Shown: positions 40,871 to 64,000 of the stretch, piece by piece | Numbering within the stretch: position 1 is the first letter of the stretch | How the letters are laid out: every line of letters begins with the position of its first letter | IMG/VR virus record: IMGVR_UViG_3300043607_000053 | DNA: 64,000 nucleotides | Strand: one strand, 5' to 3' | Origin: a virus | Notes under the pieces: generated by a model | Seen by the model: the letters and a program-made list of their open reading frames with translations, nothing else | What the model was told of the DNA's origin: nothing | The model's database searches: none | Position numbers and translations under genes: made by a program

Positions 40871-40872
40871 AA

Positions 40873-42897: not shown

Positions 42898-42920
42898 GAA
42901 CAGCCACCAAATTTTCCATA

Positions 42921-43901: not shown

Positions 43902-43909
43902 ATAATCGT

Positions 43910-44233
43910 ATGCTGAATAATGAACAAAAATATCAGCTCATCTTTACGGCCTGCTGTGCTTACATGGACGTAAACCCTGATAAGATAACCGAGAAAACCC
44001 GGAAGAAGCCCATACCCCTTACCAGGCAAATGATTGCCTACCTGATCAACAAAAACACTTCTTTGGTTTATAAGGAAATAGCTGAAAAAATCGGCTGGGC
44101 AGATCATACGATGGTCAATAAAGCCATAAATAAGATGAAAGCATACTTACGTCTCCAGCCGGAAGTGCGGGAACAGGTGAAAGGTATAGCCACGAACATA
44201 AGAGATTCAAACGGTATTATTATAATGCAATGA
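43910..44233 (+). CDS. Stand-alone DnaA domain IV-like HTH protein
   Basis: KTRKKPIPLTRQMIAYL...YKEIAEKIGWADHTMVNKAI. Confidence 0.8.
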   Translation: MLNNEQKYQLIFTACCAYMDVNPDKITEKTRKKPIPLTRQMIAYLINKNTSLVYKEIAEKIGWADHTMVNKAINKMKAYLRLQPEVREQVKGIATNIRDSNGIIIMQ

Positions 44234-44883
44234 CACCGGATATCAGTATTTGTATGCCCTGCTTCGGACGTCCTTTAAGGACCAGAAGAATGCTGGAATG
44301 TCTCGGTGCGCAGACAAAAACCGGATTTGAGCTACTATTGATAGGAGATGGGTGCACGGATTTTGAACGAATGATCAATTCGCAATGGTACTTGAACTGG
44401 CAGAAGGAGTTTTTGAAAAAAAAGAATAAATTATTTCAGATCAATTTTTCAAAAAACTATGGGGGATATGGCGCCGAAGCCCTGAATGTAGGCATTTGGC
44501 ACGCGAAAGGCCGGTACTTCTGTTTTGCAAACAATGACGACATTGTGGCCCCGGAACACATTGAATTTTACCTACTGGCCATGAAAAACCTGTCCCGGTT
44601 CGATCCGGATTTTGTTTATACAAAAACCATGATCAATAGTGGGCATGGGTTTTTTGAGCGAGATCCTTCCCTTAAATTTGGGTGCGTAGGCCATAGCGAA
44701 CTGATTGTCCGGACTGAATTTTTAAAGAAAATGCCGCCTTATGAATCGGTCTATGGCCACGATTGGAAACAGATCGACAATATGATGGTGGTATCGCGAT
44801 CCTATAAAAAAGCTGTAAATATTCCGTTCCCTACCTATTACGTAATGAGTACACCCGATTTTCGTGAAACTGAAATTGATTGA
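44230..44883 (+). CDS. GT2-family glycosyltransferase
   Basis: ISICMPCFGRP, IGDGC, ALNVGI..AKGRYFCFANNDD. Confidence 0.8.
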   Translation: MTPDISICMPCFGRPLRTRRMLECLGAQTKTGFELLLIGDGCTDFERMINSQWYLNWQKEFLKKKNKLFQINFSKNYGGYGAEALNVGIWHAKGRYFCFANNDDIVAPEHIEFYLLAMKNLSRFDPDFVYTKTMINSGHGFFERDPSLKFGCVGHSELIVRTEFLKKMPPYESVYGHDWKQIDNMMVVSRSYKKAVNIPFPTYYVMSTPDFRETEID

Positions 44884-44884
44884 T

Positions 44885-45175
44885 ATGGAAAACAAATCGA
44901 TTACTCCGCTGATGTCCGGCCTTATCGTTGGTCTTTTGGTTTACTGGTTTATGTCCCGCAGGCAAAGAAAAACCAAGACCGCATCGGTAAAAAATCAAAC
45001 GCCGGCACGTAGTAAAGCCACTCCGCAAAAGGATATCCACCAAATGTCTGTGGAAGAATTGAGGGGTATGCTAACAGAAGCCATCCAGGAAGACACAAAG
45101 GAATCTTACCTGGAAGCTGGCAGGATCCGGGACCAGATAGCATCAATGAAGAAGCATAAATATCGATCAACTTAA
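44885..45175 (+). CDS. Membrane-anchored protein with a UVR-like C-terminal hairpin
   Basis: TM; EAIQED..ESYLEAGRIRDQI. Confidence 0.55.
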   Translation: MENKSITPLMSGLIVGLLVYWFMSRRQRKTKTASVKNQTPARSKATPQKDIHQMSVEELRGMLTEAIQEDTKESYLEAGRIRDQIASMKKHKYRST

Positions 45176-45185
45176 AATAGCAACT

Positions 45186-45467
45186 ATGACACAAGTAGAA
45201 TGTGAAAAAATACCCAAAGAAGCGAAGGCTCTTAAAGCAATTGTTATGGGAGGATACGCAATCTTTTGCCAGGGATTTCTAAAAGCCGCCAACGTCACAA
45301 GTGAACTGCACAGTGTCGATAAGAAAAAAGGAATACCTGCCTATGGATTTATTATGTACAAAAAGGAAAAGGTATATTATTGTCGGTATGGTTTCATCAA
45401 CAGTCCTGATATATACGATAACGAACAATTAAAAGATAAACATGGCAAAAATCAAGTTGGGGTATAA
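45186..45467 (+). CDS. Hypothetical protein
   Basis: 93 aa. Confidence 0.55.
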   Translation: MTQVECEKIPKEAKALKAIVMGGYAIFCQGFLKAANVTSELHSVDKKKGIPAYGFIMYKKEKVYYCRYGFINSPDIYDNEQLKDKHGKNQVGV

Positions 45468-47175
45468 AGTTGGCACTTCTGAAGAGGTTTTTATTAAACC
45501 TTCACACATGATTGTAACCGGTGTTACTCAATTATCCGGGAAGACTACTACGCTGGAAGCTCTTTTGGCACGCCAGGATCAAAACGTAAAAGCGATTGTT
45601 TTTAAAACAAAGCCTGGAGAACGAAGTTTTTCCGATGGTGATATTATTCCTCCTTTTTTCCGCGACCGGTCGGATTATGAATTTGTCCGGTCACTCATCG
45701 AGGCATATAACAGGGAGAAATTGGGTATTGAAAAGGGTACCCTTATGACTGTCTGTAAAGGCACTAACAGTTTGTTGGAAATTAAAAAGAAAGTAGATGA
45801 AGCAATGGCTTCAGGTAAACTAAGGGGCATCAATTTGGAGATCAATACGCGGCTGCAGCATTACCTTGATATGTTGATCCCGCAGATACAGGCAGCTCAA
45901 TTATCGCGCACTCTTGATCTCCTACCCGGAATTAACATAATGAACCTGGAAAGATTTTCGGTTGAAGCCCAAAGCCTGATTATCCAGGCCGTTGCCGGCG
46001 AAGTTTTAAAAAACCTGAACAATACCATCTTGGTAATACCGGAAGCATGGAAGTTCCTGCCTCAAAAATATAATAACCCCTGTAAACGAACAGTGGAAGA
46101 GTATATAAGGCAGGGAGCTGCCAACCAAAATTTCGTTTGGGTAGATTCTCAGGATATGGCCGGCGTGGACAAAAGCCCATTGAAACAGATATCAGTGTGG
46201 GTACTGGGCTATCAGTCAGAAATAAACGAGGTAAAACACACGCTTGCTCAAATTCCATTGCCTGCAAAATTAAAGCCTAAAGAAGAGCACATAATGAACC
46301 TTAAAATAGGCCAGTTTTTTGTAAGTACCGGGGAAAATGTAACAAAAGTATATGTGCAGCCTTCCTGGATGGATGATAAAACGGCTATTTCCATTTCAAA
46401 AGGTCAGGCGCAGGCGTCAGACTTCAAAGCGCCGCTAACATTTAAAAAATCTAAATTCCGTATTCCCGTTGCATCAGATCCTACCCCCGGACCAGGCAAT
46501 GACCAAGTTGCTCAACTAAGGAAGGAGATCAATGAGGTTAGAATAGATTTCCATAATAAAATTGATGAGCTGGTAGATAGTGTACAAGAAAGTTATGATA
46601 AAATACAAAGGAGTTTAGGATTATCTGAAAATTTTAATAAGCCAGAGCTGCCAAACATCGATAATATAGTAACATTGGTACTTCAGAAAATGCCACTTCA
46701 AAAGAAAGTGACAGCGGAAGTACCCGTACAGGCAATCGATGTAAAATCACTGATCCCCGAAATATTAAAGCATCTGCCGGCAGGTGGGGGAGCTGCTGTG
46801 TACCAGGTAGCGCCGCTGGAAAAAATAAGGCAAAATTTTCTTCAGGAGATCCGGGATAAAATTTTGGCAGATATCAAAAGCCTCACCGATCGGCAACGAA
46901 AAATATTAAGGTTTGTGGAAGCATCGGGACAAGGCTGTAACATATCGCATATCATTGAAAAACTTTTTATGCAATCTGCTACCAGTTCCGGTACGCGAAA
47001 TTGGGTATCAAAGGAGAACAGCATCTTGTCGTCATTGAATTTATCCAGGAAAGACAAAAATGGCAGCCTATTCCCTTTACTCAAAGAACGCATTAAAGAG
47101 TTAATGGGAAATCATGGCGCCAAAGAAACTGAAATTGACAACTTGTATAATCATATAATGGCAGAGTTAATATAA
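45442..47175 (+). CDS. HerA/FtsK-like (DUF87-type) ATPase with coiled coil and C-terminal wHTH-like region
   Basis: HMIVTGVTQLSGKTTT, LVIPEAWKF, IRQG, VDSQ. Confidence 0.7.
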   Translation: MAKIKLGYKVGTSEEVFIKPSHMIVTGVTQLSGKTTTLEALLARQDQNVKAIVFKTKPGERSFSDGDIIPPFFRDRSDYEFVRSLIEAYNREKLGIEKGTLMTVCKGTNSLLEIKKKVDEAMASGKLRGINLEINTRLQHYLDMLIPQIQAAQLSRTLDLLPGINIMNLERFSVEAQSLIIQAVAGEVLKNLNNTILVIPEAWKFLPQKYNNPCKRTVEEYIRQGAANQNFVWVDSQDMAGVDKSPLKQISVWVLGYQSEINEVKHTLAQIPLPAKLKPKEEHIMNLKIGQFFVSTGENVTKVYVQPSWMDDKTAISISKGQAQASDFKAPLTFKKSKFRIPVASDPTPGPGNDQVAQLRKEINEVRIDFHNKIDELVDSVQESYDKIQRSLGLSENFNKPELPNIDNIVTLVLQKMPLQKKVTAEVPVQAIDVKSLIPEILKHLPAGGGAAVYQVAPLEKIRQNFLQEIRDKILADIKSLTDRQRKILRFVEASGQGCNISHIIEKLFMQSATSSGTRNWVSKENSILSSLNLSRKDKNGSLFPLLKERIKELMGNHGAKETEIDNLYNHIMAELI

Positions 47176-47200
47176 GGTAACGGCTATTGATTAATGCTGC

Positions 47201-47476
47201 ATGAACCTACTCGAAATAAAACCAAAGTATGTCGAATATATGCCAGAAGAGCTGGAAAATGGCATACTTTATATTTCTGATAAATTCCAAATTGCTATTC
47301 ACTTGTGTGCGTGTGGATGTTGCGGGCAGACAGTAACACCATTGGGCGACGATGGATGGATATTGTCAAAAATTGGAGAAGCCGTAACATTAAGACCGTC
47401 TATTGGAAATTGGTCGGGAGAGAGCCCCTATCACGCTCATTATTACATAACGGAAAACAAAATTCAATGGTTATAA
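47201..47476 (+). CDS. DUF6527-like metal-binding protein
   Basis: HLCACGC, VTLRPSIGNW, HAHYYIT. Confidence 0.75.
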   Translation: MNLLEIKPKYVEYMPEELENGILYISDKFQIAIHLCACGCCGQTVTPLGDDGWILSKIGEAVTLRPSIGNWSGESPYHAHYYITENKIQWL

Positions 47477-47490
47477 TCGTTTCCAAAAGC

Positions 47491-47958
47491 ATGAAACAAC
47501 TATCAGATAAGGAGCGCAAAATATTGGGGTTTTCTTTATTTACTTACTGTATTAAAGAAGGACCATCTTCACTTTCGGAAGTAGAAAATTTGGTAAACAA
47601 AATTGGGGTTATGCCTCAATTTGAGTTTTTTGCAAAAGACTGCATTGCATTCCTAAGTAAGAAAAAGTCATATACTAGTGATCTTTCATTAATAGCATTG
47701 TGTTACCATAAGCATGTAGAAGATATGGATGGTGCTGTTAGTTTCACTTACGACCAATACGAAGAATTTTGGCTTAACAACAGCGCCGGCAGCAGCTACA
47801 AGTTAAAAAACAGGAATAATTCAGTGGAGAATTGTAAAATAGTATATTATCCATTACCATATTACAGGGACCTGCGTGCACTCGTTGAAGTAAAAAACAA
47901 GAATGTAACCTTTACCGATTACCGGGAGGTCCCTGTACAATTCCTGTCAAAAATTTAA
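47491..47958 (+). CDS. Hypothetical protein
   Basis: ATG 47491. Confidence 0.55.
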   Translation: MKQLSDKERKILGFSLFTYCIKEGPSSLSEVENLVNKIGVMPQFEFFAKDCIAFLSKKKSYTSDLSLIALCYHKHVEDMDGAVSFTYDQYEEFWLNNSAGSSYKLKNRNNSVENCKIVYYPLPYYRDLRALVEVKNKNVTFTDYREVPVQFLSKI

Positions 47959-48245
47959 TAAAATCCAATTCGGGTTATCCCTGGCTGTACTTCATTACAG
48001 AATGAAGAGTTGTTAATTTGTGTTTTTCTGGAATCCCATAATTCCAATTGCTCATTCGATATATCCTTTATGTTTATAAATATACTTTCCCAGCCACCGT
48101 CTTCCTTTTTGTCACTGCCAATAAGTTTTTGCTGATCATATCGGTTATCTGTTTGCCCCTGCTCTATAAATGCTGATTTTAGAGGACCAGCTATTTCTTC
48201 AAAAATATTGACTGCTTTGCGAACCGAAGTTTGTGACAATGCCAT
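47955..48245 (-). CDS. Hypothetical protein
   Basis: 96 aa, convergent. Confidence 0.55.
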   Translation of the reverse strand: MALSQTSVRKAVNIFEEIAGPLKSAFIEQGQTDNRYDQQKLIGSDKKEDGGWESIFINIKDISNEQLELWDSRKTQINNSSFCNEVQPGITRIGFY

Positions 48246-48399
48246 GTTGTTTATTATTAGGTGAAATTAATTACAGTTGTCTTACTTGTTGCTATCGATT
48301 ATCTTTTCATATTACAGTCGTTCGCCGTGTAGCCCTATGCCTTCGACTAATCGCATGAGATTGAGGGTTTATTATGCAGAAAATATTTGCTACGGGATA

Positions 48400-48669
48400 T
48401 TAATTTTCCGGGATTTTATTCTTTATAAGCATTGAAGCCTTGTATAAAATTTCGTATGCCTCTACCTCTTCGACTTTTAATTCATTAAGCTCTTCCTGGG
48501 GCATGGGGATAAGGTTCATATCTGCATCAATCGTACTGATTTGTCCACAATACATACAAATGGCAATGTCTCCGGCTTTTGGAGATTCATTATTTTTTGC
48601 ATCTGAAAGTGAATCTATTTTGTGTAAACAAGTCTGGCAATGGCGCTCTTCTGTACGCAGAATGGGCAT
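48400..48669 (-). CDS. Zinc-ribbon protein
   Basis: CQTC...CMYCG. Confidence 0.65.
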   Translation of the reverse strand: MPILRTEERHCQTCLHKIDSLSDAKNNESPKAGDIAICMYCGQISTIDADMNLIPMPQEELNELKVEEVEAYEILYKASMLIKNKIPEN

Positions 48670-48819
48670 CGTAAAATTTTTGTGAATTTCCGGATTTACC
48701 GCCTAAAATGACCGTCCGTGAAGGTATTTTTTTGGAAAGCCGTAACTTTAGCTGAATTTGGTTGCCCAATCCCAAATATCCGTGGGATTGTCAACAGGCC
48801 CGTTAATAATTTAGTACCA

Positions 48820-49263
48820 ATGGAAACTAGTGAGAACCAGGCCGGGGCTTCAGGACCGGCTGGTAAGAAAAAGGAGAGTGTGGTGGTGGTAGCGAGTGGA
48901 TCACTAAAAACAATTACCGCTCTATTATCGATCGTAGTTATCGTTTGTTTTGCCATTTTAGGCGGGGCACTTTTTAATGCATTTCACCCGCCACAACCTC
49001 CCCCAAACAAGGAATTGATCAAATACCTGGAGCAAGAGCGCCAGGAGATAGTCAAAAGCCGCCAGGCTATTGAAAAGGTCGCTGCCGATAACATGACCGC
49101 GGCCATCGATCGCCAGCTCCGGGATAGCTTGACAGATATGAAAACGCAGGCACGCTTATTACAATCACTTGACAACTTCCGGCCACTGTATGAAAAAAAT
49201 AAGTATGTCTTTGATCTTGGCGCTACTCAGCTTCGCCGGGAATACACAGACTTCAAACCCTGA
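48820..49263 (+). CDS. TM plus coiled-coil protein (i-spanin-like candidate)
   Basis: ATG 48820; one TM then heptad-rich region. Confidence 0.5.
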   Translation: METSENQAGASGPAGKKKESVVVVASGSLKTITALLSIVVIVCFAILGGALFNAFHPPQPPPNKELIKYLEQERQEIVKSRQAIEKVAADNMTAAIDRQLRDSLTDMKTQARLLQSLDNFRPLYEKNKYVFDLGATQLRREYTDFKP

Positions 49264-49612
49264 TACAACGTGCCTGCCGGTACCGGATGCACAAAAAGTA
49301 TTGAAGGCTGCAAAAGATGGGAAGATATACCATGCAGAAAGAGATAGCGCCTTTGAACTGATCAAAGTAATGGATGGCCGTATCAATTCAAAAGACAGCA
49401 CTATTCAAAACCTGATTATTTCCACGATATCTAAGGATCTGCTTATTGCTACATACAAAAAAGAAAGCGCCAACCTGGTTGATCAGCGCGACAAGCAAAA
49501 GCTCGACACGTATTACTATGAAAATTTGTATCGAAGGCAACGAACAAAATCGGCAATTACCGGTATAGCCGGAATTGCCGGAATTGTTGCAATTTTGTTT
49601 CTGAAAAAATAA
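49190..49612 (+). CDS. Signal peptide plus coiled coil plus C-terminal TM (spanin-like candidate)
   Basis: ATG 49190, overlaps the upstream gene by 74 nt. Confidence 0.5.
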   Translation: MKKISMSLILALLSFAGNTQTSNPDTTCLPVPDAQKVLKAAKDGKIYHAERDSAFELIKVMDGRINSKDSTIQNLIISTISKDLLIATYKKESANLVDQRDKQKLDTYYYENLYRRQRTKSAITGIAGIAGIVAILFLKK

Positions 49613-49659
49613 CATTCCCGCCCCGGTGATCAGTAGTGTGAAAGAAAAGTGAGGTATCT

Positions 49660-50049
49660 ATGGCTAATTCTTATATTGATCTTCCCGCAGATCTGCAGGC
49701 CCTTAATGTCGATGGCCGTTATGATCACATTATCAAACGCGCCAAAAATTTCGGATATCACGACTTCAAATTTGATTGCATACCCGACCATCCGGAGTAT
49801 GGCGATTGTTTATGCCCCAAAGCACAATTGGTTGACGATTTATCGGTATTTCCCGAGCTGGCCGCTATTCGCAAAGAAGTAATGCATGGAAAATATGATG
49901 ATAATTGTGATGAAGTGGATGAGTTAAGAACAAGGGCCATGCTACTTTCAGAAAACGCCCCGGACCAGTTGTTCATTAAAATACTGGGGCAGGATCCTCC
50001 AACCAGGGAGGAAAGAGAAAATTTCAAAAAACAAACCAAACTGAATTGA
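49660..50049 (+). CDS. Hypothetical protein
   Basis: 129 aa. Confidence 0.65.
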   Translation: MANSYIDLPADLQALNVDGRYDHIIKRAKNFGYHDFKFDCIPDHPEYGDCLCPKAQLVDDLSVFPELAAIRKEVMHGKYDDNCDEVDELRTRAMLLSENAPDQLFIKILGQDPPTREERENFKKQTKLN

Positions 50050-50050
50050 A

Positions 50051-50380
50051 ATGCATACTTACGAAGCAAACCAAAATACAAATGGCTGTTATTCTCTTGT
50101 TCGTGATGGAAATGTATGCCGGTGCCCGAAATCTTCCCTTGAATTGCCGCAGGTAAATGCAGTAAGCGGTCAAGTGACAATAGTACCTACGCAAATGACA
50201 TGCTGTACTTTATGCCCGTTTGCAGAATTAAGAGAAGTACCGGGACATGAAGAAGTAAAAAAGATAGAGTATATAACCAGTTGCGAAGGCAGGGATAAAA
50301 CATTTTCCATCGAAAAGATAAATAAGCAGGATCCCGGTGGAAAGAAAATGGCAAGTGTGCTTATGCTAAATCCTGAATAA
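50051..50380 (+). CDS. Cys-containing hypothetical protein
   Basis: CRCP, CCTLCP. Confidence 0.6.
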   Translation: MHTYEANQNTNGCYSLVRDGNVCRCPKSSLELPQVNAVSGQVTIVPTQMTCCTLCPFAELREVPGHEEVKKIEYITSCEGRDKTFSIEKINKQDPGGKKMASVLMLNPE

Positions 50381-50381
50381 A

Positions 50382-50600
50382 ATGGATAAGCATAAAAGAC
50401 TACCTGCTTTTTTAAAGTACATGAGAAAACAAACGAAGCTGACACAAGTTGAATGTGCTTTAAAGGCGGGGGTGGGATTGAAATTTTTACGTAAAGTGGA
50501 ACAGGGAAAGCAAACACTGAATGTTACTAAGGTAAATCAGATACTTGCCCTTTTTGGACATGAGTTACAGCCAGTACGAAGTAAAGAAATTGAGGACTAA
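50382..50600 (+). CDS. XRE/y4mF-family HTH protein
   Basis: RKQTKLTQVECALKAGVGLKFLRKVEQGK. Confidence 0.85.
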   Translation: MDKHKRLPAFLKYMRKQTKLTQVECALKAGVGLKFLRKVEQGKQTLNVTKVNQILALFGHELQPVRSKEIED

Positions 50601-50603
50601 ATT

Positions 50604-50867
50604 ATGTGTGAGCATAAAAAGTTTGAATCCCGTGCAGCAGTAACCAGGCTTACCGACCAGGATGATTCAACAAAAATAACCGGGTACAGGCTTGATCTGC
50701 GGGTATGGTGTACGGATTGCGGCCAATCCTTTGAATTTATTGGAATAAAAGGGGGGTATAGCCCTGTCCATCCCACTGTAAATTTCAATGGCACAGAGCT
50801 GCGATGTCCGTTGGTACCATCTACCGAAAAACCGGACCCCGCTATAATCAAAGCCAATAAAAATTAA
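50604..50867 (+). CDS. Zinc-binding hypothetical protein
   Basis: CEH...CTDCG...C. Confidence 0.6.
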   Translation: MCEHKKFESRAAVTRLTDQDDSTKITGYRLDLRVWCTDCGQSFEFIGIKGGYSPVHPTVNFNGTELRCPLVPSTEKPDPAIIKANKN

Positions 50868-50875
50868 TCCCAGCT

Positions 50876-51259
50876 ATGCAAACAACTATTGCTCTTTATA
50901 TCACCGTTTCTTGTTTTTGGCAGCTTATTTCTCTTTGGGTTGGCTACCTGAAAATACTGGAGAAGGCGAAGACCGATTATATGTACCGACGTATGCTTGA
51001 TGTAAAAAAAAGTTACATAGGAGCATTGTTAAAGGATCAATTATTGGTGCCGGCAATCATAATATTGGGCATTAGTGTGATCATTGCAAGCCCGATTTTA
51101 TTTCCCATCGAATTATTCAGGTATGTAAAAAGACTGTTCTTTGCAAAATCAAAAGCAAAAAAAAGTGTGGATGCTGAAGATGAGACAATGAAACAAGATC
51201 AGGATATTACCGAGATCACTGCGGATGAAGAGGGTAATGAATTTAAGTCTATGATATAG
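50876..51259 (+). CDS. Membrane protein
   Basis: Two hydrophobic segments, acidic tail. Confidence 0.6.
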   Translation: MQTTIALYITVSCFWQLISLWVGYLKILEKAKTDYMYRRMLDVKKSYIGALLKDQLLVPAIIILGISVIIASPILFPIELFRYVKRLFFAKSKAKKSVDAEDETMKQDQDITEITADEEGNEFKSMI

Positions 51260-51263
51260 CTTT

Positions 51264-52574
51264 ATGAAGAAAGATATACCGTTTAAACGCCTGAAGATCC
51301 TGTGCCTGTTTGATTATGCAGCCAATACAGGGTTTGCAACCGTTTCAAAAAATATAGTTCCCCGGTTAAAAAAATTTTTCGCGACCGATAACCTGGTACT
51401 TGATATCTGTGCGATCAATTATTTTGGCGACAAGTACCAGGAAGATAAAAACACAACTGTTTTTTCTGCGCTAAAGTCAATGCCGATAAAAAAAATGCCT
51501 GGCCTGAAAGATGATTTCGGGCGCTTCGGGTTTTTGAATGTACTGGCAATGTCCAATGACGATAACGGCATCGATAAGGTGGCGCCGTGGGAAATGGGTT
51601 ATGACGGCATTTTTATTATCCAGGATCCTGGCATCATTAATTCCCTGGCACTGGACCTGGAAATGATACAGCAGCGAAATAAAAGGGAAAAGCGCAAACA
51701 GTTCAAGAGCATTGTGTATTTCCCGGTGGACCATGATATCAGCAGCTCGGCCATGATCAGCCGCATGGACTTCTTTGACGAGATCGTTACCTATAACGAA
51801 TTTTGCCGGGACCAGATCCTAAAACTACGCCCTGCCTGGCGCGGAAAGCTCCGGGTTATACCACACGGAATGAACCTGGCCGACTTTTACCCGCTTCCCG
51901 AAGACCAGGTAAGCCAGTTTCGCCGGCAATATTTCGGGGAAAATGCCGGGAAGTTCATTATCCTGAACCTGAACCGTAACCAATCCCGTAAAGACATACC
52001 CTGCACAATTTTCGCGTTTGAAGAGCATAGGAGGCAAAATAAGGACGCATTTTTGTATTTGCACATGAATCCATCCGATCCGCTGGGATGGGATTTAAGG
52101 GGCTTACTGGCCCAAACCAGCCTGGTGGAAGGAAAGGACTTCATGTTCCCCCCTGCATCGCAGGAGAACCACGGCGCCGATCTGCAAACTCTGAACAGCA
52201 TATATAATGCCTGCGACGTATATGTTACAACTACGCTGGGGGAGGGCTGGGGGTTGACCGTGACCGAAGCAATGGCCTGTAAGCTCCCGGTGATCTGCCC
52301 GTTAAGCACCTCGCTAATCGATATTTCTGACAATGGCAAAAGAGTGTACCATCTTGAAAACCTATATCCGATTGCCCAAATAGCCGATAATACCAAACGT
52401 GAGCAATGCGATTACGTGGAAGTGGCCGCCCGTATGCAGCAGGTGTACAATGATAAAAAATCCGGCAATGAAATGCTGAAAAGTAAAGTAAAGGCGGCAT
52501 TTGATTATGTACAAACCCTGGATTGGGATATTGTAGCAGTAGAATGGGGTAACTTGATGAAAAAAACATTTTAA
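51264..52574 (+). CDS. GT4-family (GT-B) glycosyltransferase
   Basis: NRNQSRKD, YNACDVYV...GEGWGLTVTEAMACKLPVI. Confidence 0.9.
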   Translation: MKKDIPFKRLKILCLFDYAANTGFATVSKNIVPRLKKFFATDNLVLDICAINYFGDKYQEDKNTTVFSALKSMPIKKMPGLKDDFGRFGFLNVLAMSNDDNGIDKVAPWEMGYDGIFIIQDPGIINSLALDLEMIQQRNKREKRKQFKSIVYFPVDHDISSSAMISRMDFFDEIVTYNEFCRDQILKLRPAWRGKLRVIPHGMNLADFYPLPEDQVSQFRRQYFGENAGKFIILNLNRNQSRKDIPCTIFAFEEHRRQNKDAFLYLHMNPSDPLGWDLRGLLAQTSLVEGKDFMFPPASQENHGADLQTLNSIYNACDVYVTTTLGEGWGLTVTEAMACKLPVICPLSTSLIDISDNGKRVYHLENLYPIAQIADNTKREQCDYVEVAARMQQVYNDKKSGNEMLKSKVKAAFDYVQTLDWDIVAVEWGNLMKKTF

Positions 52575-53338: not shown

Positions 53339-53413
53339 ATTTAGCGAAATTGGTCTAGTTTTATAGCAAGAAGCGGGTTATTCGTAGTGACCGGGAACCT
53401 AAACCGCTTCTCG

Positions 53414-56400
53414 ATGAAACATAAAAACGGTAAAGCAGGTGGGTACCTGGTTGGTAAGAAACACTCGCAAGGTGGCATACCTATTGTCAATACCGATAAT
53501 CCCAGCCAAAAAATAGAAGCCGAAGACGGCGAAGTGATCATTACAGCTCCCGCTGTTAAGGACAATAAAGTACGTGTGCTCAAAGGCACAAACCGGCAAA
53601 TTCTTTCCCAAATAAATCAGTTAGGCGGTGGTGTATCTTTTGCCAAAGGGGGTGAGATCCCCAAATCAATCAAATGTTCCGGGCGAAAATATGAGTATGG
53701 CGGTAAGATTATGACCGATTACGATATCGTGAAAAGTTGCGGTTGTAAGCATAGTGGTAAAAAAATGGGCAAAGGTGGAAGTACAGATAATGATTCAAAT
53801 GATTGGGATATTAGTGAAGCACTTTTTAAAAAAGAAGGTAACGCAATAGCTAAGAAGCTAAATTCCGATGAAGGGTATAAAATTTTGGATTCCGACCCGG
53901 AGATAGTAAATACTACATGGTCTTCCGGCGGTTGTTATCCTTTTGCAAGAGCAATGCAGCAAATATTCGGAGGTAAACTTGTATTTATTTGGGATAGAGG
54001 TATTGCCCAACACGTAATGCTGAATGTTGGAAAATTATATTTGGATAGCGATGGAGTTTCGGACATTGGTAAAAAATTTAAAGTCGCAAAGACGGAAGGA
54101 CTTAAAAATCCTGTATTAGAAGAGTTTGATATAAAAAAGATAGGTGCTATTGGTATAGGCGGAGAAAATCTAGTCAGAAAAATAGTTGAATACGCTACCA
54201 GCGAGGGAACTGGAAAGATGCAGAAGGGAGGCAACACCGGTGATATTTATGACGATATGAATGCCCAATTTCCAAGTGTTAAAAAGACAATGGAAAAGGT
54301 AAAAAAATTCCTGATTGAAAACGGATATACGATCATAAAGGAGCATGAGCCTGATTTTGATACAGATGGCAGTTTGGAGTTGACAGAAAAAATCCATGTC
54401 AGTATTGATATGGAGTGCGAATTTTCTGCCGGCCTGGAAAGTGCGGACGGAGAGAGATTTTTATTTTATCAGCCAACAACAAGTTTAAAAAAGCTATTAG
54501 CGCAAATAAAAGAAGCAGAAGAGAACAAAGAATTTAAAGATGGAGGGGAAATTGAAAACCAAGCTAATCCCAATAAGGAAATAGAACAAGAGCTTATTGA
54601 GGCGATAAAGGTATTAAAGGCTCCACCTAAGCATCCTTTAAGTAATTATGTAAATGATCCCAAAGCATTTTTATCATTCATTCAGGAACAGGCCACAGGC
54701 TTAAATCCGCAACGCACTTCTGTAACTCTTCCAGAAGGCTTAACACCAGAACTTGCATTCAATTCGGCTGTAACGTTGGTAGGAAGTGAAGATTTCGTAT
54801 TGCAAAGCATTAAAATATTGCCAGAAGAAACTAAAGCAATAATCAAAAAAGCCTGGTATGGAAAAATTATTCCCGTGAAACTTCGCCGGGTGGTAGCTGA
54901 GAGAAAATTTGAATACGGTGGGATGTTTCAGCAAGGGCGAAAGACACTGGCATTAAAAGTTCCTGAAGGCACGGTAAGAAACAGTGCATTTTATCAAACA
55001 TTCAAAAAGGGCGGTTATTTTGACAAGGGTGGTGCAGTGCGCAGCTTAGTGCCTTATCGCGAGAATAGTTTTATTTCTTCATTGGTTGTTAAGCAAGGAG
55101 GTGAATTAGCTGAATCAAAATATAAAGCTCCCAGGATCGGTTTATATGCACCGCGCATCGAACTAACATATACTAACGAAGATAAAATACCAGTAAGAAA
55201 AGTAAATACTTCACAGGGGATTTTTGATTTTCTATGGCAAATATGGAATAAAGATACTCTTCCTATTCTTGAACAATCATACATCTTATATCTGAATACC
55301 AATCTTCGGATAATTGCCTATTATGATTTATCAAAAGGTGGTATAACCGGGACCGTCGTTGATCCCAGGTTAGTAGTTGCGACTGCAGCACAGGCAGGTG
55401 CAACAAATGTGGTATTAGCGCACAACCATCCTTCGGGTGGGTTAACCCCCAGCCGGGGTGATCTAAAAGTGACAGAACAATTGGCTGCAGCTTTAAAAGA
55501 AACAGATACAACATTAATGGATCATTTGATTATTACACCCGATGGGCAGTATTATAGTTTTCTGGATAATGGAAAATTGCAGTATGCACGGGGAGGTAAA
55601 ATCGGTAAATCAAAGGCCAGCAATGATGACAAAAAAACAGGCATTGTAGAGTTCACAAAAATGATCGGTAAGGTAAACCCATTTGTACCTCAGTTTCAGA
55701 TAACATATTTGGCAAACCTTTTCCGTGGCGAAGAAAAACAAGCAGCCATCGATATCCTTACGGATCTTATTGAAGTCATTAATAAAATTCCCTACACCTA
55801 TCAAACAAAAAACCAATCGGCAGATGAAAAAATAGTTTACCTGCATTATTTCTATGGCGGTAGTGATTGGTATATCGTAGAAAAGGATAAAGGGGATCTA
55901 TCCGATCCGATACCGGGGACGCAAAACCAAGCGTACGGATATGTAATATTGAACGGGGATTTAATAGATGCTGAATGGGGGTATATCAGTATTGAAGAAA
56001 TAAGGCAGAATGAGCAAATTGAGCTTGATTTCTATTTTACCCCCGTGCCTTTCGGGGAATTAAAAAAGAAATGGCAGGATCCTGAAGAAGAGCAAGGTGA
56101 AGAACAACAGCAAGGACCGGAATATAGTTTTGTGGGCGGTAAAAATAATAGCCTGGACCTGGTAAAGTTTTCCAGTTATGCAACTACATACAAATGGCTG
56201 GATGATTTCAACGAATTTAATTTATTAAAAAATTATGAGCCTATTCGTGTAGATGAAGAAGATGCAACCGACACGATACCAGAAGGCTATTATCTGGCTA
56301 AGGGCAGCACCGTTACAAAGTATGCGTGGGAAGGGAATCAGAATTTTTTAAATCGCGGCACCTTTGAATCCAACCTGGCATTATTGGAAAACCGAAAGGC

Positions 56401-57868
56401 TGGTGGTGATGAGGTTGAAGACGTAAATACCGGCAATGATCAGCACCGTGGCCGGACCGAAGTAGTAATAATTTTAAAAGCAGGCACAATAGTTCCACTT
56501 AAAAGGAATATTGGAAGACATAAAGCTGGTGACAAGGTAGAATTAGCTTTTGATTTCTATGAAGGGGATGATAAATTAAAAGTAAGATGCTGTGATCAGG
56601 ACCGTATAAAAGAACTTTTTGAGGTAAAGCCATCCGATGTGATCATGCCGGGTGAGACAACCGGCATTGACAATAAAGAATCTGACGGTGACGAAAAAAC
56701 AGAACCAGGCATGAAGCCTGCAGGCGGGGAAAAAATACAGGTCAGACAAATTTCTTTAGGCGCTGCAAAAACCGTGGGTGATTATAATGAAGCTAACCGG
56801 GCGCTGCGCTGGATACTGGATAATAAAAAACAATCGAACCAGGAATATGATATCACTTTTGCTGACGGCTTTATTTTATCCGGGTCTATTGACCTGGAAC
56901 CCTCTACCTTTTGGAAGGATAAGCCGCAGCCGTTCACCTGGCACATAAATACGTTTTGGAATAATATAGCCAATTCTAAGCCTAATCCGGCTTTCCCAAC
57001 TGAAACCGATATCCAATTTGCAGAAGCAGTGGTAAATAATTATGATTTGGGATCTGCCGGCATTATTGAAAATAAAAAGCAGCCATTAAAGCAAGCATCA
57101 ACCACTACCAATAGCCAGCAGGTGCAGATCAATAACCAGGTGCGTGAGCTGATCAAAGAAAAGGGCATAGATTCTCTAAAATATAGTGCGCAAGAATTAT
57201 CACTATTGAAATTGTATGAAGGTGCCGGCGCGGAAAAGGGCAGTAGCACCGATGTAAGGATCCTGGACCAGTTTTTCACGCCAATGGACATTTGCGGAAA
57301 AATGTGGGGTATGGCCATCAAGCATGGGTTTAAATTTCCAGGAAGCAGCATTTGTGAACCCGCAGTAGGAAGTGGACGTTTCTTGTCCTATATCCCGTCC
57401 GATGCCGGCGCATACGTGCGTGCCTACGATGTGGATGAAACGGCATATTCAATTTGCAAAATCTTATATCCAGCATTCGATATCAGGCATAAAAGTTTTG
57501 AAACCGAATTTTTCAAAGGACGTCGCCATATCGGTCTCGCCGGTGTAACGAAGTTCTTTGACCTGGTGATCGGCAATCCTCCTTACCGTGAATATGTAAG
57601 TGAATATGCACCACTGGGAGAAAAGAAGGAAACCGGGGCGTTTACTTTTGAAATGTACTTTATCGCAAGAGGCATTGACGTGCTTGTACCAGGTGGACTA
57701 CTTATATATATTATCCCGAATACCTTTTTGAGCAACGATAATAAGTATAATGAGTTTAAAGAAAAGCTGGCGAAAAAATGTGATTTCCTCGATGCATACA
57801 GATTGCCTAACGGTGTGTTTTCAAATACAGAAGTAAGCACCGATATCATTGTATTGAGAAAAAAATAA
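53414..57868 (+). CDS. Large polyvalent protein: papain-like, JAB/RadC, DUF2958-like and N6-adenine MTase domains
   Basis: ATG 53414; GGCYPFA..H..LDSDG; HNHPSGGLTPSRGD; LHYFYGGSDWYI...EWGYISIEE; QFFTP, EPAVGSGRF, VIGNPPY. Confidence 0.85.
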   Translation: MKHKNGKAGGYLVGKKHSQGGIPIVNTDNPSQKIEAEDGEVIITAPAVKDNKVRVLKGTNRQILSQINQLGGGVSFAKGGEIPKSIKCSGRKYEYGGKIMTDYDIVKSCGCKHSGKKMGKGGSTDNDSNDWDISEALFKKEGNAIAKKLNSDEGYKILDSDPEIVNTTWSSGGCYPFARAMQQIFGGKLVFIWDRGIAQHVMLNVGKLYLDSDGVSDIGKKFKVAKTEGLKNPVLEEFDIKKIGAIGIGGENLVRKIVEYATSEGTGKMQKGGNTGDIYDDMNAQFPSVKKTMEKVKKFLIENGYTIIKEHEPDFDTDGSLELTEKIHVSIDMECEFSAGLESADGERFLFYQPTTSLKKLLAQIKEAEENKEFKDGGEIENQANPNKEIEQELIEAIKVLKAPPKHPLSNYVNDPKAFLSFIQEQATGLNPQRTSVTLPEGLTPELAFNSAVTLVGSEDFVLQSIKILPEETKAIIKKAWYGKIIPVKLRRVVAERKFEYGGMFQQGRKTLALKVPEGTVRNSAFYQTFKKGGYFDKGGAVRSLVPYRENSFISSLVVKQGGELAESKYKAPRIGLYAPRIELTYTNEDKIPVRKVNTSQGIFDFLWQIWNKDTLPILEQSYILYLNTNLRIIAYYDLSKGGITGTVVDPRLVVATAAQAGATNVVLAHNHPSGGLTPSRGDLKVTEQLAAALKETDTTLMDHLIITPDGQYYSFLDNGKLQYARGGKIGKSKASNDDKKTGIVEFTKMIGKVNPFVPQFQITYLANLFRGEEKQAAIDILTDLIEVINKIPYTYQTKNQSADEKIVYLHYFYGGSDWYIVEKDKGDLSDPIPGTQNQAYGYVILNGDLIDAEWGYISIEEIRQNEQIELDFYFTPVPFGELKKKWQDPEEEQGEEQQQGPEYSFVGGKNNSLDLVKFSSYATTYKWLDDFNEFNLLKNYEPIRVDEEDATDTIPEGYYLAKGSTVTKYAWEGNQNFLNRGTFESNLALLENRKAGGDEVEDVNTGNDQHRGRTEVVIILKAGTIVPLKRNIGRHKAGDKVELAFDFYEGDDKLKVRCCDQDRIKELFEVKPSDVIMPGETTGIDNKESDGDEKTEPGMKPAGGEKIQVRQISLGAAKTVGDYNEANRALRWILDNKKQSNQEYDITFADGFILSGSIDLEPSTFWKDKPQPFTWHINTFWNNIANSKPNPAFPTETDIQFAEAVVNNYDLGSAGIIENKKQPLKQASTTTNSQQVQINNQVRELIKEKGIDSLKYSAQELSLLKLYEGAGAEKGSSTDVRILDQFFTPMDICGKMWGMAIKHGFKFPGSSICEPAVGSGRFLSYIPSDAGAYVRAYDVDETAYSICKILYPAFDIRHKSFETEFFKGRRHIGLAGVTKFFDLVIGNPPYREYVSEYAPLGEKKETGAFTFEMYFIARGIDVLVPGGLLIYIIPNTFLSNDNKYNEFKEKLAKKCDFLDAYRLPNGVFSNTEVSTDIIVLRKK

Positions 57869-59351: not shown

Positions 59352-62300
59352 ATGAATCCATTCATAGGCGATAATTTCTTCAAACAGAACCCTTCCAAAG
59401 TTTTGGGTAAACAATACACCAAAAAGGGCCGGTTTGGATCTGATATGATCATGGTGGAAGGAAATTTTAGCGATATTGACAAAATTGAAGCCTCCCCGGT
59501 CGAGGTAGTGGATATATATGCTCACCAGGTATTCAGCAAAGAGACAAAACAGGAAATTATTGACCAAGTATTCCAACAAGAGGAAAAGGAAAATACTGAG
59601 AAGAAAGTAACAAAACGCCGGAAAGGAAAATCGGATGAGAAGGAAACAGAAAATGACAATGAAGTTTATTCATTTGCCGAGATCGATCAATTATACAACG
59701 AGGGCATTACCCGGGATGAAAAAGAAGCCTATTATTTCACTCACCCGGAGCTGAATTATAAATTACTATTCGATAAATACACCAATAGCAAAGAAGATTT
59801 TATAAAGAAAAGCCTTATTTGCTGGGACCCGGAGCTTAGGGAATTTGTATATCGATATACCTATCAATCCGGTAATGTATCAAAAAAGATATCGGACCTG
59901 CAGCGTGAAAAGGATCGCTTTATCTCCAGCCTGGGAGAGCCAATGTGGAATAAGCAACTGGCCATGCTAAATGATGTAAGACCTAAGCAAAAAGGGTTTG
60001 TGGGGGATGAAAAAATTGTGCTATTGCCCCATTCCAATTTTGTAAAGGAGTTTCAGATTGAGGAATTACGATTTGGAAAACCGCAGCTCAATGGAGCTAC
60101 CAGCCTGGTGTATGCATTTAAACGCTGGTTATCTGAATTGCCACCGGATAATTTTAAGAAATCCACTGTTCGTGAAATCATTGAATATTACCTGGATAAC
60201 AAGGCGATCAGTATAGATAGTAAAGCCAACAAAGCCGAACAGGTTAAGCAGGAAAAGAATGCGATCAATATAAGACAGCGAACAAAAGAAGAGGGCGACG
60301 AACTGTTTGCCCGTTTTCTTTCTGATGAATTGCTCCCGGAGGACCAGGCGAAGCTGGCTTATATGTGGAATCAGAAATTTAATAGCCTGGCTGAACCGGA
60401 TTTGAATAAGATCCCTGTGTGTTTTAAGATGGGTAAGAAATTCAAAGCCGGACCATTGTTGCTTAATCCTACACAAAGACGAGCTGCTGCAATGGCTACG
60501 GAAAAGAAAAGTACATTATTGGCTTATGGAGTGGGAGTTGGTAAAACGCTTGCATCGATCGTATGTTTTTCGCAGGCATACTATAACGGTTATGCAAACA
60601 AAGGTTGTTTTGTGGTGCCCACAAATACCTATGATAAATGGGTAGGCGAAATACAGGGCTATACAGATAGTAAGACCGGTAAGTTCATGCATGGTGCCCT
60701 TCCGCAAATGCCACCGGTGATTGGCTTGTATAACCTTAATCCCAACATTGTAAGGGAAAAGCTGAAAATTTATACCAAAGACGAACAGGCAAAACTGGAT
60801 AGCATTGAAGAAGCAATCCATAAAATCAAAACTTTTAAAGGAGATATCCCTACCGATAACCAAACGCAAATAATCAATAGAATTTATCCTGTCAACTGGT
60901 TGGGATTACGGGCTGCGTATGGCAACTACCTGGAACTAACCAGCAGTAAGCGTCCGAAAACACTAATGGAGTATGCTGCGGAGTATCTTAAAGAAGAGTT
61001 TAATTACTATATATACGACCTGGGCAGGATCAAAGAATTTGCTGATGGTACCATTTTCGTGATAACGGAAGTAGGTCTGCAGCGTCTTGGTCTGAATGAA
61101 GGCCACAAGGACGAACTGGCCGGTAAATTCTATACCATATTGTCACAGGGAGAATCGACTGCAGGCCGTGAGGCAGGCCGTGATATCGCCAAACTCATGG
61201 AAAAAATAAATCAGACTGTCTCCAGCAGCATGAAAAATGCAAAATTGCTGGTAGAAGATTTTGGCATTAACTGGGTATGTTTTGATGAAGCCCATTATTA
61301 TAAAAAGATTTTCACCTATGTAAAGGGTGCTATCAAAGGAGAATCGATTGACGAAGAAACCGGGCAGAAAAAATACAAGCGTGATAAAAGCAAATATGAA
61401 TTGAAGTCCGGCGCCTTTCCTTCATCCCGGGCGCTCAGTGCCTTTGTGATGAGCCATTATATTCAAAGCCAAAATGCCAACAGGAATGTCATACAACTAA
61501 CCGCGACGCCGTTCACGAATAGCCCACTGGAAGTATATTCAATGCTTGCTCTTACCAATTATCATTTACTGGAAGAGCTGGGCCTGTCCAATATGGTTGA
61601 TTTCTTTGACACATTTATGCGGATCAATTATGATATCAAATACACACCGCAAAAAACAGTAGTTAAAGACGTAGTGCTTACAGGATATAATAATCTTCCG
61701 CAGCTCCGGCAGATTATTTATTCGCTCATGGATAAAAAGGATGAAGGCGCAAATTTAAAACGTCCGACAAAAGTAATATGGCCATCCATTGACAAGGGCA
61801 TCGAGACAACAATGAAAATGACGTCCGAACAGGAAGAGCTGATGCGCAATGTTAAGTCCTATATTCAGGGAAATTCCGAATACGAAGAGATTTGTTCATC
61901 GGCACTGAAGGAAGAGATTGACAATATTGATTTTGATGGCCTCGGAGATGAGGACCTTATTTCCGAATGGGAGAAATCGACAAGTAATGAATACCAGGGC
62001 GACCGGGAAGAATTAACCGAAGCGAAGCGGCAACAGTTAATCGAACAGATTAAAAAAGCGAAAGCATCCGGAATAGAATTTAGCGCCGGGGACCTGGCAG
62101 AAGAAGAGGCTATGGGTGTGCGCATTCTCAAAGGGCTGGCCATGATGCGGCAGATCACTCTTTCTCCTTACCTGTATTATAAAGCCTGCAGAAAGGCCGG
62201 GGAAATGGCTTCGCAACTACCTGATTGGCTGGACTATGTAAACAGCAGCCCGAAATTCAAATATACAATGGGTTGCATTGATAGTGCAATGAGGTGGCAT

Positions 62301-63944
62301 AAAGAGAACGGAACAAAGCCGGGAGGCCATGTTATTTACATGAATGCTGGTGTTGAATATTTTCCACTCTTGAAAGAGTACCTGGTACGCAAGCTGGGTT
62401 TTAAGGAAAACCAGGTAGGCATCGTTAGCGGTGGAATGGGCAAAAACGCAAAGGAATCAGTTAAACAAAAATTCCTGGCCGGTGATATCCTGGTATTGAT
62501 AGGAAGCAGTACAATTAGTGTTGGTGTGGATCTGCAATCTAATGCATCCACACTTTATAACCTGTATTATGATTGGAACCCGACCGATGCGGCACAGATA
62601 GAGGGCCGGATATGGCGCCAGGGAAACCGGTTTGCATTTACGAGGATCGTTTATCCTCAATGTTTCAATAGTGCTGACCCGGTAATTTTTGAATATCTCA
62701 ATTCAAAAACTTTGCGTATAAATGAAATCTGGAATCGTAGCAGCACGATGCAGGAACTTGATTTGCGTGACTTCGATCCAAAGAAATTACAGAAGGAGCT
62801 GATCACTGATCCGGAAGAGAAAGCCGATTGGGAAATTTTGGAGGAAAGCGACCGCATACAGAGCGATATCATATTTGCCGAAAACCGTCGCGAAAGTCTT
62901 AGCAATGCTATGTATTCTTTCAGGACTGTAAAGGACCTGCGGCCAAAAGTTATACACTGGATGAATCAATTATCGGCACGCAAAATAAAGATCACCAGGG
63001 ATGAGGCTATTGCTAATCAAAAGGAAAGAATCAGCGAGATCGTTGAAAAGTATAGCGACAATCCGGATAAAATGGCCAGCGAAATCGAGAAATATAAAAA
63101 AAGCAGGTATGACTATGAAAATGATCCGGAAGGGAAATACTTGCCAATGGATTATGCAGAGCTGGGGGATGAAAAAATGTATGCGGATGCAAAAAAATAC
63201 CTGGAACTGGTAGAGGAATGGAATTACCGTAGTGAATCGGATTGGGGCGATCTGTATCTCAACCGTGGATCAATTGAAAGGGAACTGCAGGAGTTTCGCA
63301 ATAATTACAAGGACATGAAAGCTGCAGAGGAAAGAATTATAAAACCAATGGGACTGTCATTTGAAACAGCGTCGGATCCGATGGCTTCTTTTGATGCGAT
63401 GGTGAGCGATTTGCAAAAGCAGCTTACTGAAATAGAAGACAGCCGGCCAGCCCGGGTAAACAGGATCCGGGAGGAAATGGCGAAAAGGAATATTGTTGTT
63501 AAAACTGTGGATGACCGGATAAGGGAGTTTGCATCATTTAACGGAAAATATTTGGAGCCTCAATTGGTTTATACTGATAATAAGCAACAGGAAGTTGTTC
63601 CTGCTACTCAATTACCGGCGGCGGGTGCACAACCAGGTAAAAAGGAAAAACCTGTTACTGCTATGCCGGCAGCTCCGGTGACAAAGCCGGCTATTGAAAA
63701 GAAACAAAAAACGGCACCTGCAGAAAAACCCGTTACTCCAAAACCTGTTATTAAAACACCTGGTGAAATATCTAAGGAAAACAAGCTGGTATCGGTGAAA
63801 AAAGGACCTGCAGATCAGAAAAAAATAATCAAGCAGCAGATCGAGGCGCTTACTATTGCGCTTCAATTTGCTGAAAATAAGAGCAAACCTGTTCTTACCA
63901 GGGAGATCGATGCGCTGGATATTGCATTACAATTTGCAGCGTAA
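59352..63944 (+). CDS. DarB-like SF2 (SNF2-type) helicase, without a fused MTase
   Basis: AYGVGVGKT, FDEAH, LTATPFTNSPLE, VGVDLQ, WNPTD..QIEGRIWRQGN. Confidence 0.85.
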   Translation: MNPFIGDNFFKQNPSKVLGKQYTKKGRFGSDMIMVEGNFSDIDKIEASPVEVVDIYAHQVFSKETKQEIIDQVFQQEEKENTEKKVTKRRKGKSDEKETENDNEVYSFAEIDQLYNEGITRDEKEAYYFTHPELNYKLLFDKYTNSKEDFIKKSLICWDPELREFVYRYTYQSGNVSKKISDLQREKDRFISSLGEPMWNKQLAMLNDVRPKQKGFVGDEKIVLLPHSNFVKEFQIEELRFGKPQLNGATSLVYAFKRWLSELPPDNFKKSTVREIIEYYLDNKAISIDSKANKAEQVKQEKNAINIRQRTKEEGDELFARFLSDELLPEDQAKLAYMWNQKFNSLAEPDLNKIPVCFKMGKKFKAGPLLLNPTQRRAAAMATEKKSTLLAYGVGVGKTLASIVCFSQAYYNGYANKGCFVVPTNTYDKWVGEIQGYTDSKTGKFMHGALPQMPPVIGLYNLNPNIVREKLKIYTKDEQAKLDSIEEAIHKIKTFKGDIPTDNQTQIINRIYPVNWLGLRAAYGNYLELTSSKRPKTLMEYAAEYLKEEFNYYIYDLGRIKEFADGTIFVITEVGLQRLGLNEGHKDELAGKFYTILSQGESTAGREAGRDIAKLMEKINQTVSSSMKNAKLLVEDFGINWVCFDEAHYYKKIFTYVKGAIKGESIDEETGQKKYKRDKSKYELKSGAFPSSRALSAFVMSHYIQSQNANRNVIQLTATPFTNSPLEVYSMLALTNYHLLEELGLSNMVDFFDTFMRINYDIKYTPQKTVVKDVVLTGYNNLPQLRQIIYSLMDKKDEGANLKRPTKVIWPSIDKGIETTMKMTSEQEELMRNVKSYIQGNSEYEEICSSALKEEIDNIDFDGLGDEDLISEWEKSTSNEYQGDREELTEAKRQQLIEQIKKAKASGIEFSAGDLAEEEAMGVRILKGLAMMRQITLSPYLYYKACRKAGEMASQLPDWLDYVNSSPKFKYTMGCIDSAMRWHKENGTKPGGHVIYMNAGVEYFPLLKEYLVRKLGFKENQVGIVSGGMGKNAKESVKQKFLAGDILVLIGSSTISVGVDLQSNASTLYNLYYDWNPTDAAQIEGRIWRQGNRFAFTRIVYPQCFNSADPVIFEYLNSKTLRINEIWNRSSTMQELDLRDFDPKKLQKELITDPEEKADWEILEESDRIQSDIIFAENRRESLSNAMYSFRTVKDLRPKVIHWMNQLSARKIKITRDEAIANQKERISEIVEKYSDNPDKMASEIEKYKKSRYDYENDPEGKYLPMDYAELGDEKMYADAKKYLELVEEWNYRSESDWGDLYLNRGSIERELQEFRNNYKDMKAAEERIIKPMGLSFETASDPMASFDAMVSDLQKQLTEIEDSRPARVNRIREEMAKRNIVVKTVDDRIREFASFNGKYLEPQLVYTDNKQQEVVPATQLPAAGAQPGKKEKPVTAMPAAPVTKPAIEKKQKTAPAEKPVTPKPVIKTPGEISKENKLVSVKKGPADQKKIIKQQIEALTIALQFAENKSKPVLTREIDALDIALQFAA

Positions 63945-64000
63945 TTTTTGAAATATTCAAATACGAATTATGAGCTACGATAAAGCGAAACTGAAAGAAA

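Follow-up and report, generated by a model that had tools for sequence, protein, structure and literature searches.

The 64,000-nucleotide stretch analysed here (the window), from IMG/VR virus record IMGVR_UViG_3300043607_000053, encodes a large polyvalent protein whose first half is punctuated by a short Gly-Gly motif. A sequence-only reading of the window had described ten copies, nine of the form [FYM]xxGG and one variant. It had proposed that they mark domain borders and that the protein is cut there into separate effectors, possibly by its own protease-like domains. The results showed that the motif is a real module-end tag common to this phage lineage. Self-cleavage did not hold as a general mechanism, and the tag may be a signal for loading or anchoring the protein in the phage particle.

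The tag and the domains of the polyvalent protein

The open reading frame (ORF) opens at a GTG codon and encodes 1484-1493 amino acids (aa). The likely start is Met10 at 53414, as used by the database copy P0003. All ten motifs were located where they had been reported. The gene, its modules and its tags are as follows.

53387-57868, plus strand: polyvalent protein gene, opening at GTG 53387
53414-53746, plus strand: conserved ~110-aa module, residues 10-120, with signatures HSxGG, E-x-E-G-G-E and FAxGG
53639-53653, plus strand: FAKGG, inside the conserved module
53690-53704, plus strand: YEYGG, inside the conserved module
53765-53779, plus strand: MGKGG, in the linker preceding the YunG-like domain, with equivalents in homologs
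53804-54208, plus strand: YunG-like domain, residues 140-274, a candidate papain or transglutaminase-like fold
54218-54232, plus strand: MQKGG, in the linker that follows the YunG-like domain
54239-54523, plus strand: module of residues 285-379, no assigned function
54533-54547, plus strand: FKDGG, a linker tag
54560-54898, plus strand: module of residues 392-504, signature FIQEQATG, no assigned function
54908-55102, plus strand: disordered linker with four tags
54908-54922, plus strand: FEYGG
55001-55015, plus strand: FKKGG
55019-55033, plus strand: FDKGG
55088-55102, plus strand: VKQGG
55145-55591, plus strand: RadC-type JAB domain, residues 587-735
55583-55597, plus strand: YARGG, directly after RadC
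55661-56071, plus strand: phrog_5203 domain, DUF2958-like, residues 759-895
57089-57868, plus strand: DarB-like N6-adenine DNA methyltransferase, residues 1235-1493

The first 740 aa contain 19 GG dipeptides, compared with 7.7 ± 2.5 in shuffled sequences, and none of 5000 shuffles reached 19. The remainder of the protein was at expectation (5 vs. 4.7). Phe, Tyr or Met stood at position -3 in 9 of the 19 sites (binomial p = 1.4e-5). Between residues 10 and 740, [FYM]xxGG occurred nine times against 0.67 ± 0.80 in 20,000 shuffles, of which the maximum was 6. This corresponds to a rate of 1.23 per 100 aa, compared with 0.046 in the other ORFs of the window, which combined contain eight matches in 17,358 residues; the neighbouring genes have no motif. 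Tandem tags are spaced 6-25 aa apart. The Gly codons and the flanking codons vary among the ten copies, which indicates selection at the protein level. A recombination junction at the DNA level was also considered and was ruled out because the ten tags differ in these codons.

An AlphaFold2 model of residues 120-760 was built from 35 aligned homolog segments. Four folded domains were predicted: residues 140-274, with a predicted local distance difference test score (pLDDT) above 90; residues 285-379, which were weaker; residues 392-504 (pLDDT ~90); and the RadC domain at 587-735. All eight tags in the modelled region fall in low-confidence troughs between domains (pLDDT below 60), and the linker with four tags has a pLDDT of 32-49. 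The proposed bracketing was recovered in the model: MGKGG and MQKGG flank the confidently folded 140-274 domain, and VKQGG and YARGG flank RadC, whether its limits are taken from Pfam (609-729) or from the model.

The nearest families of the 140-274 domain are YunG and Phage_YunG-like (Pfam E = 0.03; Atlas score 0.90). Cys183, His209 and Asp220 are invariant in 10 sequences, in the contexts G-C-Y-x-x-A, x-H-V and Y-L-D. For the YunG and Phage_YunG-like families, no catalytic triad would have been indicated before these three residues. The JAB domain was matched by Pfam RadC with E = 7e-31. Its JAMM signature HxH-x7-S-x2-D is intact, as the sequence-only reading had stated, and an upstream Glu is present (ILEQ...AHNHPSGGLTPSRGD). 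By fold, this domain sides with the RadC clade (2qlc, template modelling score 0.90, E = 7e-9), whereas deubiquitinase JAMM domains gave E values of at least 0.02.

In the second half of the protein, the suggested DUF2958-like identity of residues 759-895 found weak support in phrog_5203 (E = 5e-15) and an Atlas score of 0.87-0.88. The methyltransferase domain was matched by Pfam Eco57I/N6 at residues 1295-1492 and by the DarB-like anti-restriction family of PHROGs. The protein is thus polyvalent, as proposed, with RadC JAB, N6-adenine methyltransferase, YunG-like and DUF2958-like domains in one polypeptide. Four degenerate GG sites also lie in this half, at 55847-55861 (YFYGG, inside the DUF2958-like domain), 56126-56140 (SFVGG), 56393-56407 (RKAGG) and 56714-56728 (KPAGG). 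SFVGG and RKAGG are near the ends of homology blocks, at roughly residues 912-923 and 995-1003, and a weaker version of the tag may therefore extend into this half.

The tag and the conserved module among relatives

A set of 176 related proteins was compared, and GG dipeptides were counted outside the conserved module. The relatives contain 1416 GG dipeptides, while 741 were expected. The aligned context is [YMFL]-[AEK]-[KDN]-G-G-x-[ILVT], which can be written as Φ-x-x-G-G-x-Φ (Φ, hydrophobic residue), a nearly symmetrical 7-mer. A common form of the tag is [K]-[FYM]-[AEK]-x-G-G-x-[ILVT]. The hydrophobic residue at +3, two positions after GG, is as well conserved as the upstream one.

Breakpoints were defined as the internal ends of BLAST homology blocks, and blocks touching the conserved module were left out. 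The results showed that 28% of the breakpoints lie within 10 residues of a motif, compared with 10.3 ± 0.8% when motifs were placed at random. Block ends occur most often on the second Gly and on +3; for block starts, the peak is on the aromatic residue. In the protein itself, the homology blocks cover residues 383-512 (from tag to tag, in P0042, where the block starts at FKDGG), 507-919, 563-737, 120-292 and 730/731 onward; the blocks of P0033, P0152 and P0095 start at YARGG. P0004, the closest relative, lacks residues 303-396, which is most of one module plus its tag. Modules are gained, lost and reordered at tags among the homologs, and the alignment showed that the tag moves together with the C-terminal end of each domain. 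For example, TMAEGG, TMQDGG or TMKEGG comes after the 392-504 domain, and [MF]xxGG is found there in most homologs. RadC is followed by Y-x-x-GG, but the RadC domain of motif-poor helicase-type relatives has no such tag. The proposal that the motifs lie at domain borders was thus borne out by the pLDDT troughs in this protein and by the homology breakpoints in its homologs. The check set in advance, whether homologs gain or lose domains at the motifs, gave a positive answer.

To describe the distribution of the tag, 52 IMG/VR viral loci found through the conserved module were scanned with the strict motif. Among their 968 ORFs, 811 had no tag and 82 had three or more, up to 26; the two rates were 0.73 and 0.045 per 100 aa. 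Five related genomes, including that of the window, each encode 2-4 motif-rich giant proteins. In one of them, G003, which was listed ORF by ORF, the other ORFs, including those of the head region, contain only scattered single or double matches. The tail region of G003 (L061, ~40053-51371 of the record) encodes a Gly-rich ORF of 3772 aa with 58 GG dipeptides, whose contexts are mostly L-x-G-G-G, unlike the tag.

The tag is also found at protein ends. The motif lies within 12 residues of the C-terminus in 36 of the 176 proteins (e.g., ...RFKxGGYVxI) and within 12 residues of the N-terminus in 10, and 26 of the 82 rich viral ORFs stop 0-2 residues past the 7-mer. Stand-alone single-module proteins of ~315 aa, encoded at four loci, have tags at residue 12 and at 20 residues before the end.

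In a Pfam census of 38 motif-rich relatives, ART-PolyVal was found in 19, DUF5661 in 16, DUF5824 in 14, methyltransferase families in 11 and RadC in 4. Single cases included Kinase-PolyVal, LPD3, MuF_C, DarA_C, Zeta toxin and NUDIX. Peptidase families were found in none of the 38. Among the homologs examined, 9 showed the YunG-like Cys-His-Asp domain.

By this census, the relatives belong to the polyvalent proteins as defined by Iyer, Burroughs, Anand, de Souza and Aravind (2017; PMC5512222), who described such proteins in phages and conjugative elements. As in their proteins, many unrelated effector domains are joined in one polypeptide and the modules are extensively shuffled. The domain repertoire is also alike, with RadC and a DarB-like methyltransferase here and ART-PolyVal, Kinase-PolyVal and others in relatives. 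The protein is phage-encoded as well: terminase-like and endolysin-like genes are present in the window, and the 52 related loci lie on IMG/VR viral contigs. That study predicted that polyvalent proteins are processed by zincin-like metallopeptidase domains; unlike this prediction, a zincin-like metallopeptidase domain is absent here. The words "glycine" and "linker" do not occur in its text, so it appears not to describe a Gly-Gly junction or end tag, and no publication on the motif was found in a literature search. A further search, on the sites cut by prohead proteases, brought up only work on other systems.

A further difference from known polyvalent domains is the conserved N-terminal module, which is common to tape measure proteins and lies outside the Pfam families. 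In a full HMMER scan with residues 10-600, 790 cluster representatives were found at E < 1e-3 and 435 at E < 1e-10, and nearly all of these relatives have only the ~110-aa module in common. The identity of the module is 45-70% among proteins of 156-2704 aa, in which it is N-terminal in 103 cases, internal in 68 and C-terminal in 9. Its invariant residues are His17, Glu40 and Asn68 (alignment A1 numbering). The module also ends tape measure proteins, such as that of Elizabethkingia phage TCUEAP1 and Chryseobacterium-type proteins. When cultured relatives were searched with the module at the protein level, the tape measure protein of phage TCUEAP1 was the sole match. Pfam has no family for it. 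The module was modelled with moderate confidence (pLDDT 75), and YEYGG forms a β-hairpin turn there. Foldseek searches of the PDB and AFDB clusters, a wide VIA-align search and an Atlas structure search gave no convincing fold match; the best match had a Z of 3.4, and only weak rows were obtained, where tape measure proteins end. When PDB sequences were searched with a profile, no hit scored better than E = 0.08. Possible roles of the module are piloting of ejection, action on the cell wall and an enzymatic activity.

Loading, cleavage or hinge

We tentatively favour the reading that the tag is a cargo-loading or anchoring signal, read in trans by a conserved virion component. The first half of the protein strings together small folded modules: one that resembles the C-terminus of tape measure proteins, the YunG-like Cys-His-Asp domain, two further domains and the RadC JAB. 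Each module is closed by Φ-x-x-G-G-x-Φ in a disordered linker. A conserved virion component would read the tag, and the cargo protein would be loaded or anchored in the particle. Several copies may provide avidity, and a free copy at the C-terminus would be as effective as an internal one. Loading may be followed by a cut at the tag or immediately beyond it, as in T4. Tags at protein ends, tags on single-module proteins, tandem tags and the conserved +3 residue are all expected of a short docking peptide. The motif, its place at domain borders, its conservation, its confinement to a few giant proteins and its use at termini are observed; we infer that the protein is packaged, that its tag is bound and what kind of partner binds it. 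Virion targeting had been offered by the sequence-only reading as an alternative to cleavage; given the C-terminal, N-terminal and tandem tags, it fits at least as well as cleavage does.

The closest known functional analogues are the cargo-loading peptides of encapsulins, which usually sit at the C-terminus and abound in Gly and hydrophobic residues, and the capsid-targeting sequence of T4, which is removed after loading. Like these peptides, the tag is short and conserved, lies in flexible, predicted disordered segments, is carried by several unrelated proteins and can be used at a terminus. Unlike them, it also occurs internally between modules, in up to 26 copies, and the sequences are dissimilar. 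Binding to a shell or scaffold is presumed by analogy.

Several points weigh against the loading or anchoring reading. No binding partner for the tag was identified, and the presence of the protein in virions is presumed. Pfam searches for the HK97 capsid and the S78 protease gave no match in the five related genomes, PHROGs matched almost nothing on the structural or head ORFs of the window or of G003, and the capsid, portal and scaffold proteins of the lineage were not recognised in these searches. Many viral and ubiquitin-type proteases also cut Gly-Gly in exposed linkers, and a short C-terminal extension past GG is also a hallmark of ubiquitin-like precursors. In addition, two of the copies (FAxGG and YxYGG) are part of the folded conserved module. 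The hairpin turn modelled for YEYGG suggests that some copies may be purely structural and need not be signals.

Cleavage of the tags in trans is a possible but more doubtful explanation. A protease of the phage or of the host would cut after GG or just past the 7-mer, during maturation or after injection, and release the effectors. The tags are found where such sites should be, in the disordered stretches that separate the domains and at homology breakpoints, and processing of polyvalent proteins has been predicted (PMC5512222). If the cut falls right after the tag, the natural C-termini 0-2 residues past the 7-mer resemble processed module ends. Head cargo of T4, phiKZ, SPN3US and P1 is processed at short motifs, and adenain, the African swine fever virus (ASFV) protease, coronavirus PLpro and deubiquitinases cut after GG. 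Adenain, ASFV pS273R and PLpro likewise recognise exposed segments in which a hydrophobic residue precedes GG, and ubiquitin-like precursors carry a similar extension past their C-terminal GG. The register is different, however: Φ-x-x-G-G here, compared with (M/I/L)-x-G-G in adenain. If the cut falls after GG, the Φ three positions ahead of the first Gly would occupy P5, where the viral Gly-Gly proteases use P4. The second conserved hydrophobic residue, past GG, is a further difference and points to recognition on both sides of GG. A matching Gly-Gly protease was not found with the sites, contrary to the cleavage proposal: the 38 rich relatives have no peptidase family in Pfam, the five genomes have no S78 protease, and the conserved neighbours (glycosyltransferases and a MoxR-type ATPase) include no protease-like product. 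Tandem tags 6-25 aa apart would yield tiny peptides, and N-terminal tags or tags on both ends of a single-module protein separate nothing. The scattered matches in the head-region ORFs of G003 give no sign of a common capsid-maturation site; a prohead protease acting on such a site is not supported, with the limit that the capsid protein itself was not recognised. Cutting in trans is compatible with the loading or anchoring reading, as in T4, where the two would follow each other. In its boldest form, which seems rather unlikely to us, a lineage of tailed phages, probably of Bacteroidota, would produce the effectors it injects as genuine polyproteins. A Gly-Gly protease from a family not yet recognised would divide these at as many as 26 Φ-x-x-G-G-x-Φ sites. 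The conserved ~110-aa module, with its invariant His, Glu and Asn and no known fold, is a candidate for this protease. If so, these phages would use a polyprotein strategy hitherto known in adenoviruses, ASFV and RNA viruses, and each effector would be left with a ubiquitin-like Gly-Gly tail. Cleavage in cis, in which the RadC JAB or the Cys-His-Asp domain would cut after Gly-Gly and free the modules, appears very improbable, even though the JAMM motif is intact, the Cys-His-Asp residues are invariant in 10 sequences and both candidate domains are flanked by tags. Proteins with up to 26 tags have neither domain; RadC is present in only 4 of the 38 tag-rich relatives and the YunG-like domain in 9 homologs. 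Because most tag-rich proteins lack both, self-cleavage cannot be the general mechanism. Moreover, the RadC clade has been predicted to act on nucleic acids and argued to lack the groove for a ubiquitin-like tail (PMC5512222).

The motif might also serve as a structural hinge or cap, in which two hydrophobic residues hold a GG turn. It would travel with each module as the end of a cassette, be recognised by nothing, and let modules swap and fold or unfold singly. The β-hairpin turn of YEYGG inside the conserved module, the near symmetry of Φ-x-x-G-G-x-Φ and the reordering, gain and loss of modules at tags are consistent with this. We consider it unlikely, because a plain hinge gives no reason for 26 of the 82 proteins to carry a conserved 7-mer at their very C-terminus, nor for a tag on single-module proteins. 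The motif is restricted to 2-4 proteins per genome, and other multidomain proteins, such as a helicase of 1530 aa in the window, have none. The linker copies are predicted to be disordered and not to form hairpins, and at the DNA level the tags have no junction sequence in common.

Genomic setting and significance

The window is a phage genome with few annotations, among them a terminase-like gene, endolysin-like genes and several glycosyltransferases. No isolated phage was matched by the gene in a megablast search, and an exact-match scan of IMG/VR for the remainder of the contig gave no hit. The neighbouring genes discussed below are as follows.

51264-52574, plus strand: GT4-type glycosyltransferase gene (phrog_2170, E = 1e-36)
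59352-63944: SNF2 helicase half of a DarB-like protein, 1530 aa, the next large gene
63970-64000, plus strand: start of a second tag-rich gene, which continues past the window and was read from L002:15913-19446

The SNF2 helicase lies between two tag-rich proteins and has no tag. The second tag-rich protein of this genome has 1177 aa, 18 GG dipeptides and about ten tags; it lacks the conserved ~110-aa module and has no notable Pfam or PHROG match. It has two near-identical C-terminal segments (...LKSGLMRDR.YKS.QPHELAYHR...), each after a YASGG tag.

The GT4-type glycosyltransferase gene is the most conserved neighbour, being present in the window and in 38 of the 52 viral loci. In 31 of these 38 loci, the first tag-bearing gene follows it at a distance of 0.25-1.5 kb. 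Further common neighbours are also glycosyltransferases (window 32810-33505 and 44230-44883). Their substrates may be DNA, virion proteins or the cargo. A MoxR-type AAA+ ATPase of ~455 aa and a partner of ~525 aa are encoded between two tag-rich giant genes in 29-31 of the 52 loci, for example in L004, L006 and G003 (L059:14093-16998). The genome of the window and G001 do not have this pair.

Polyvalent proteins are a widespread anti-defence cargo of phages and plasmids, and how they are loaded, and whether they are cut at all, has been an open prediction since 2017. The proteins and their predicted processing were already known; this 7-residue motif is apparently undescribed. The analysis also brings out a conserved domain without a Pfam family, which is common to polyvalent proteins and the C-termini of tape measure proteins. 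The conserved module, which led to the tag in the relatives, is present in several hundred clusters of proteins. The lineage offers a sharply defined and mutable 7-residue signal on every module. The tag is thus a handle for separating loading from processing, for delimiting unknown effector modules and for spotting cargo proteins in the barely annotated genomes of uncultured phages.

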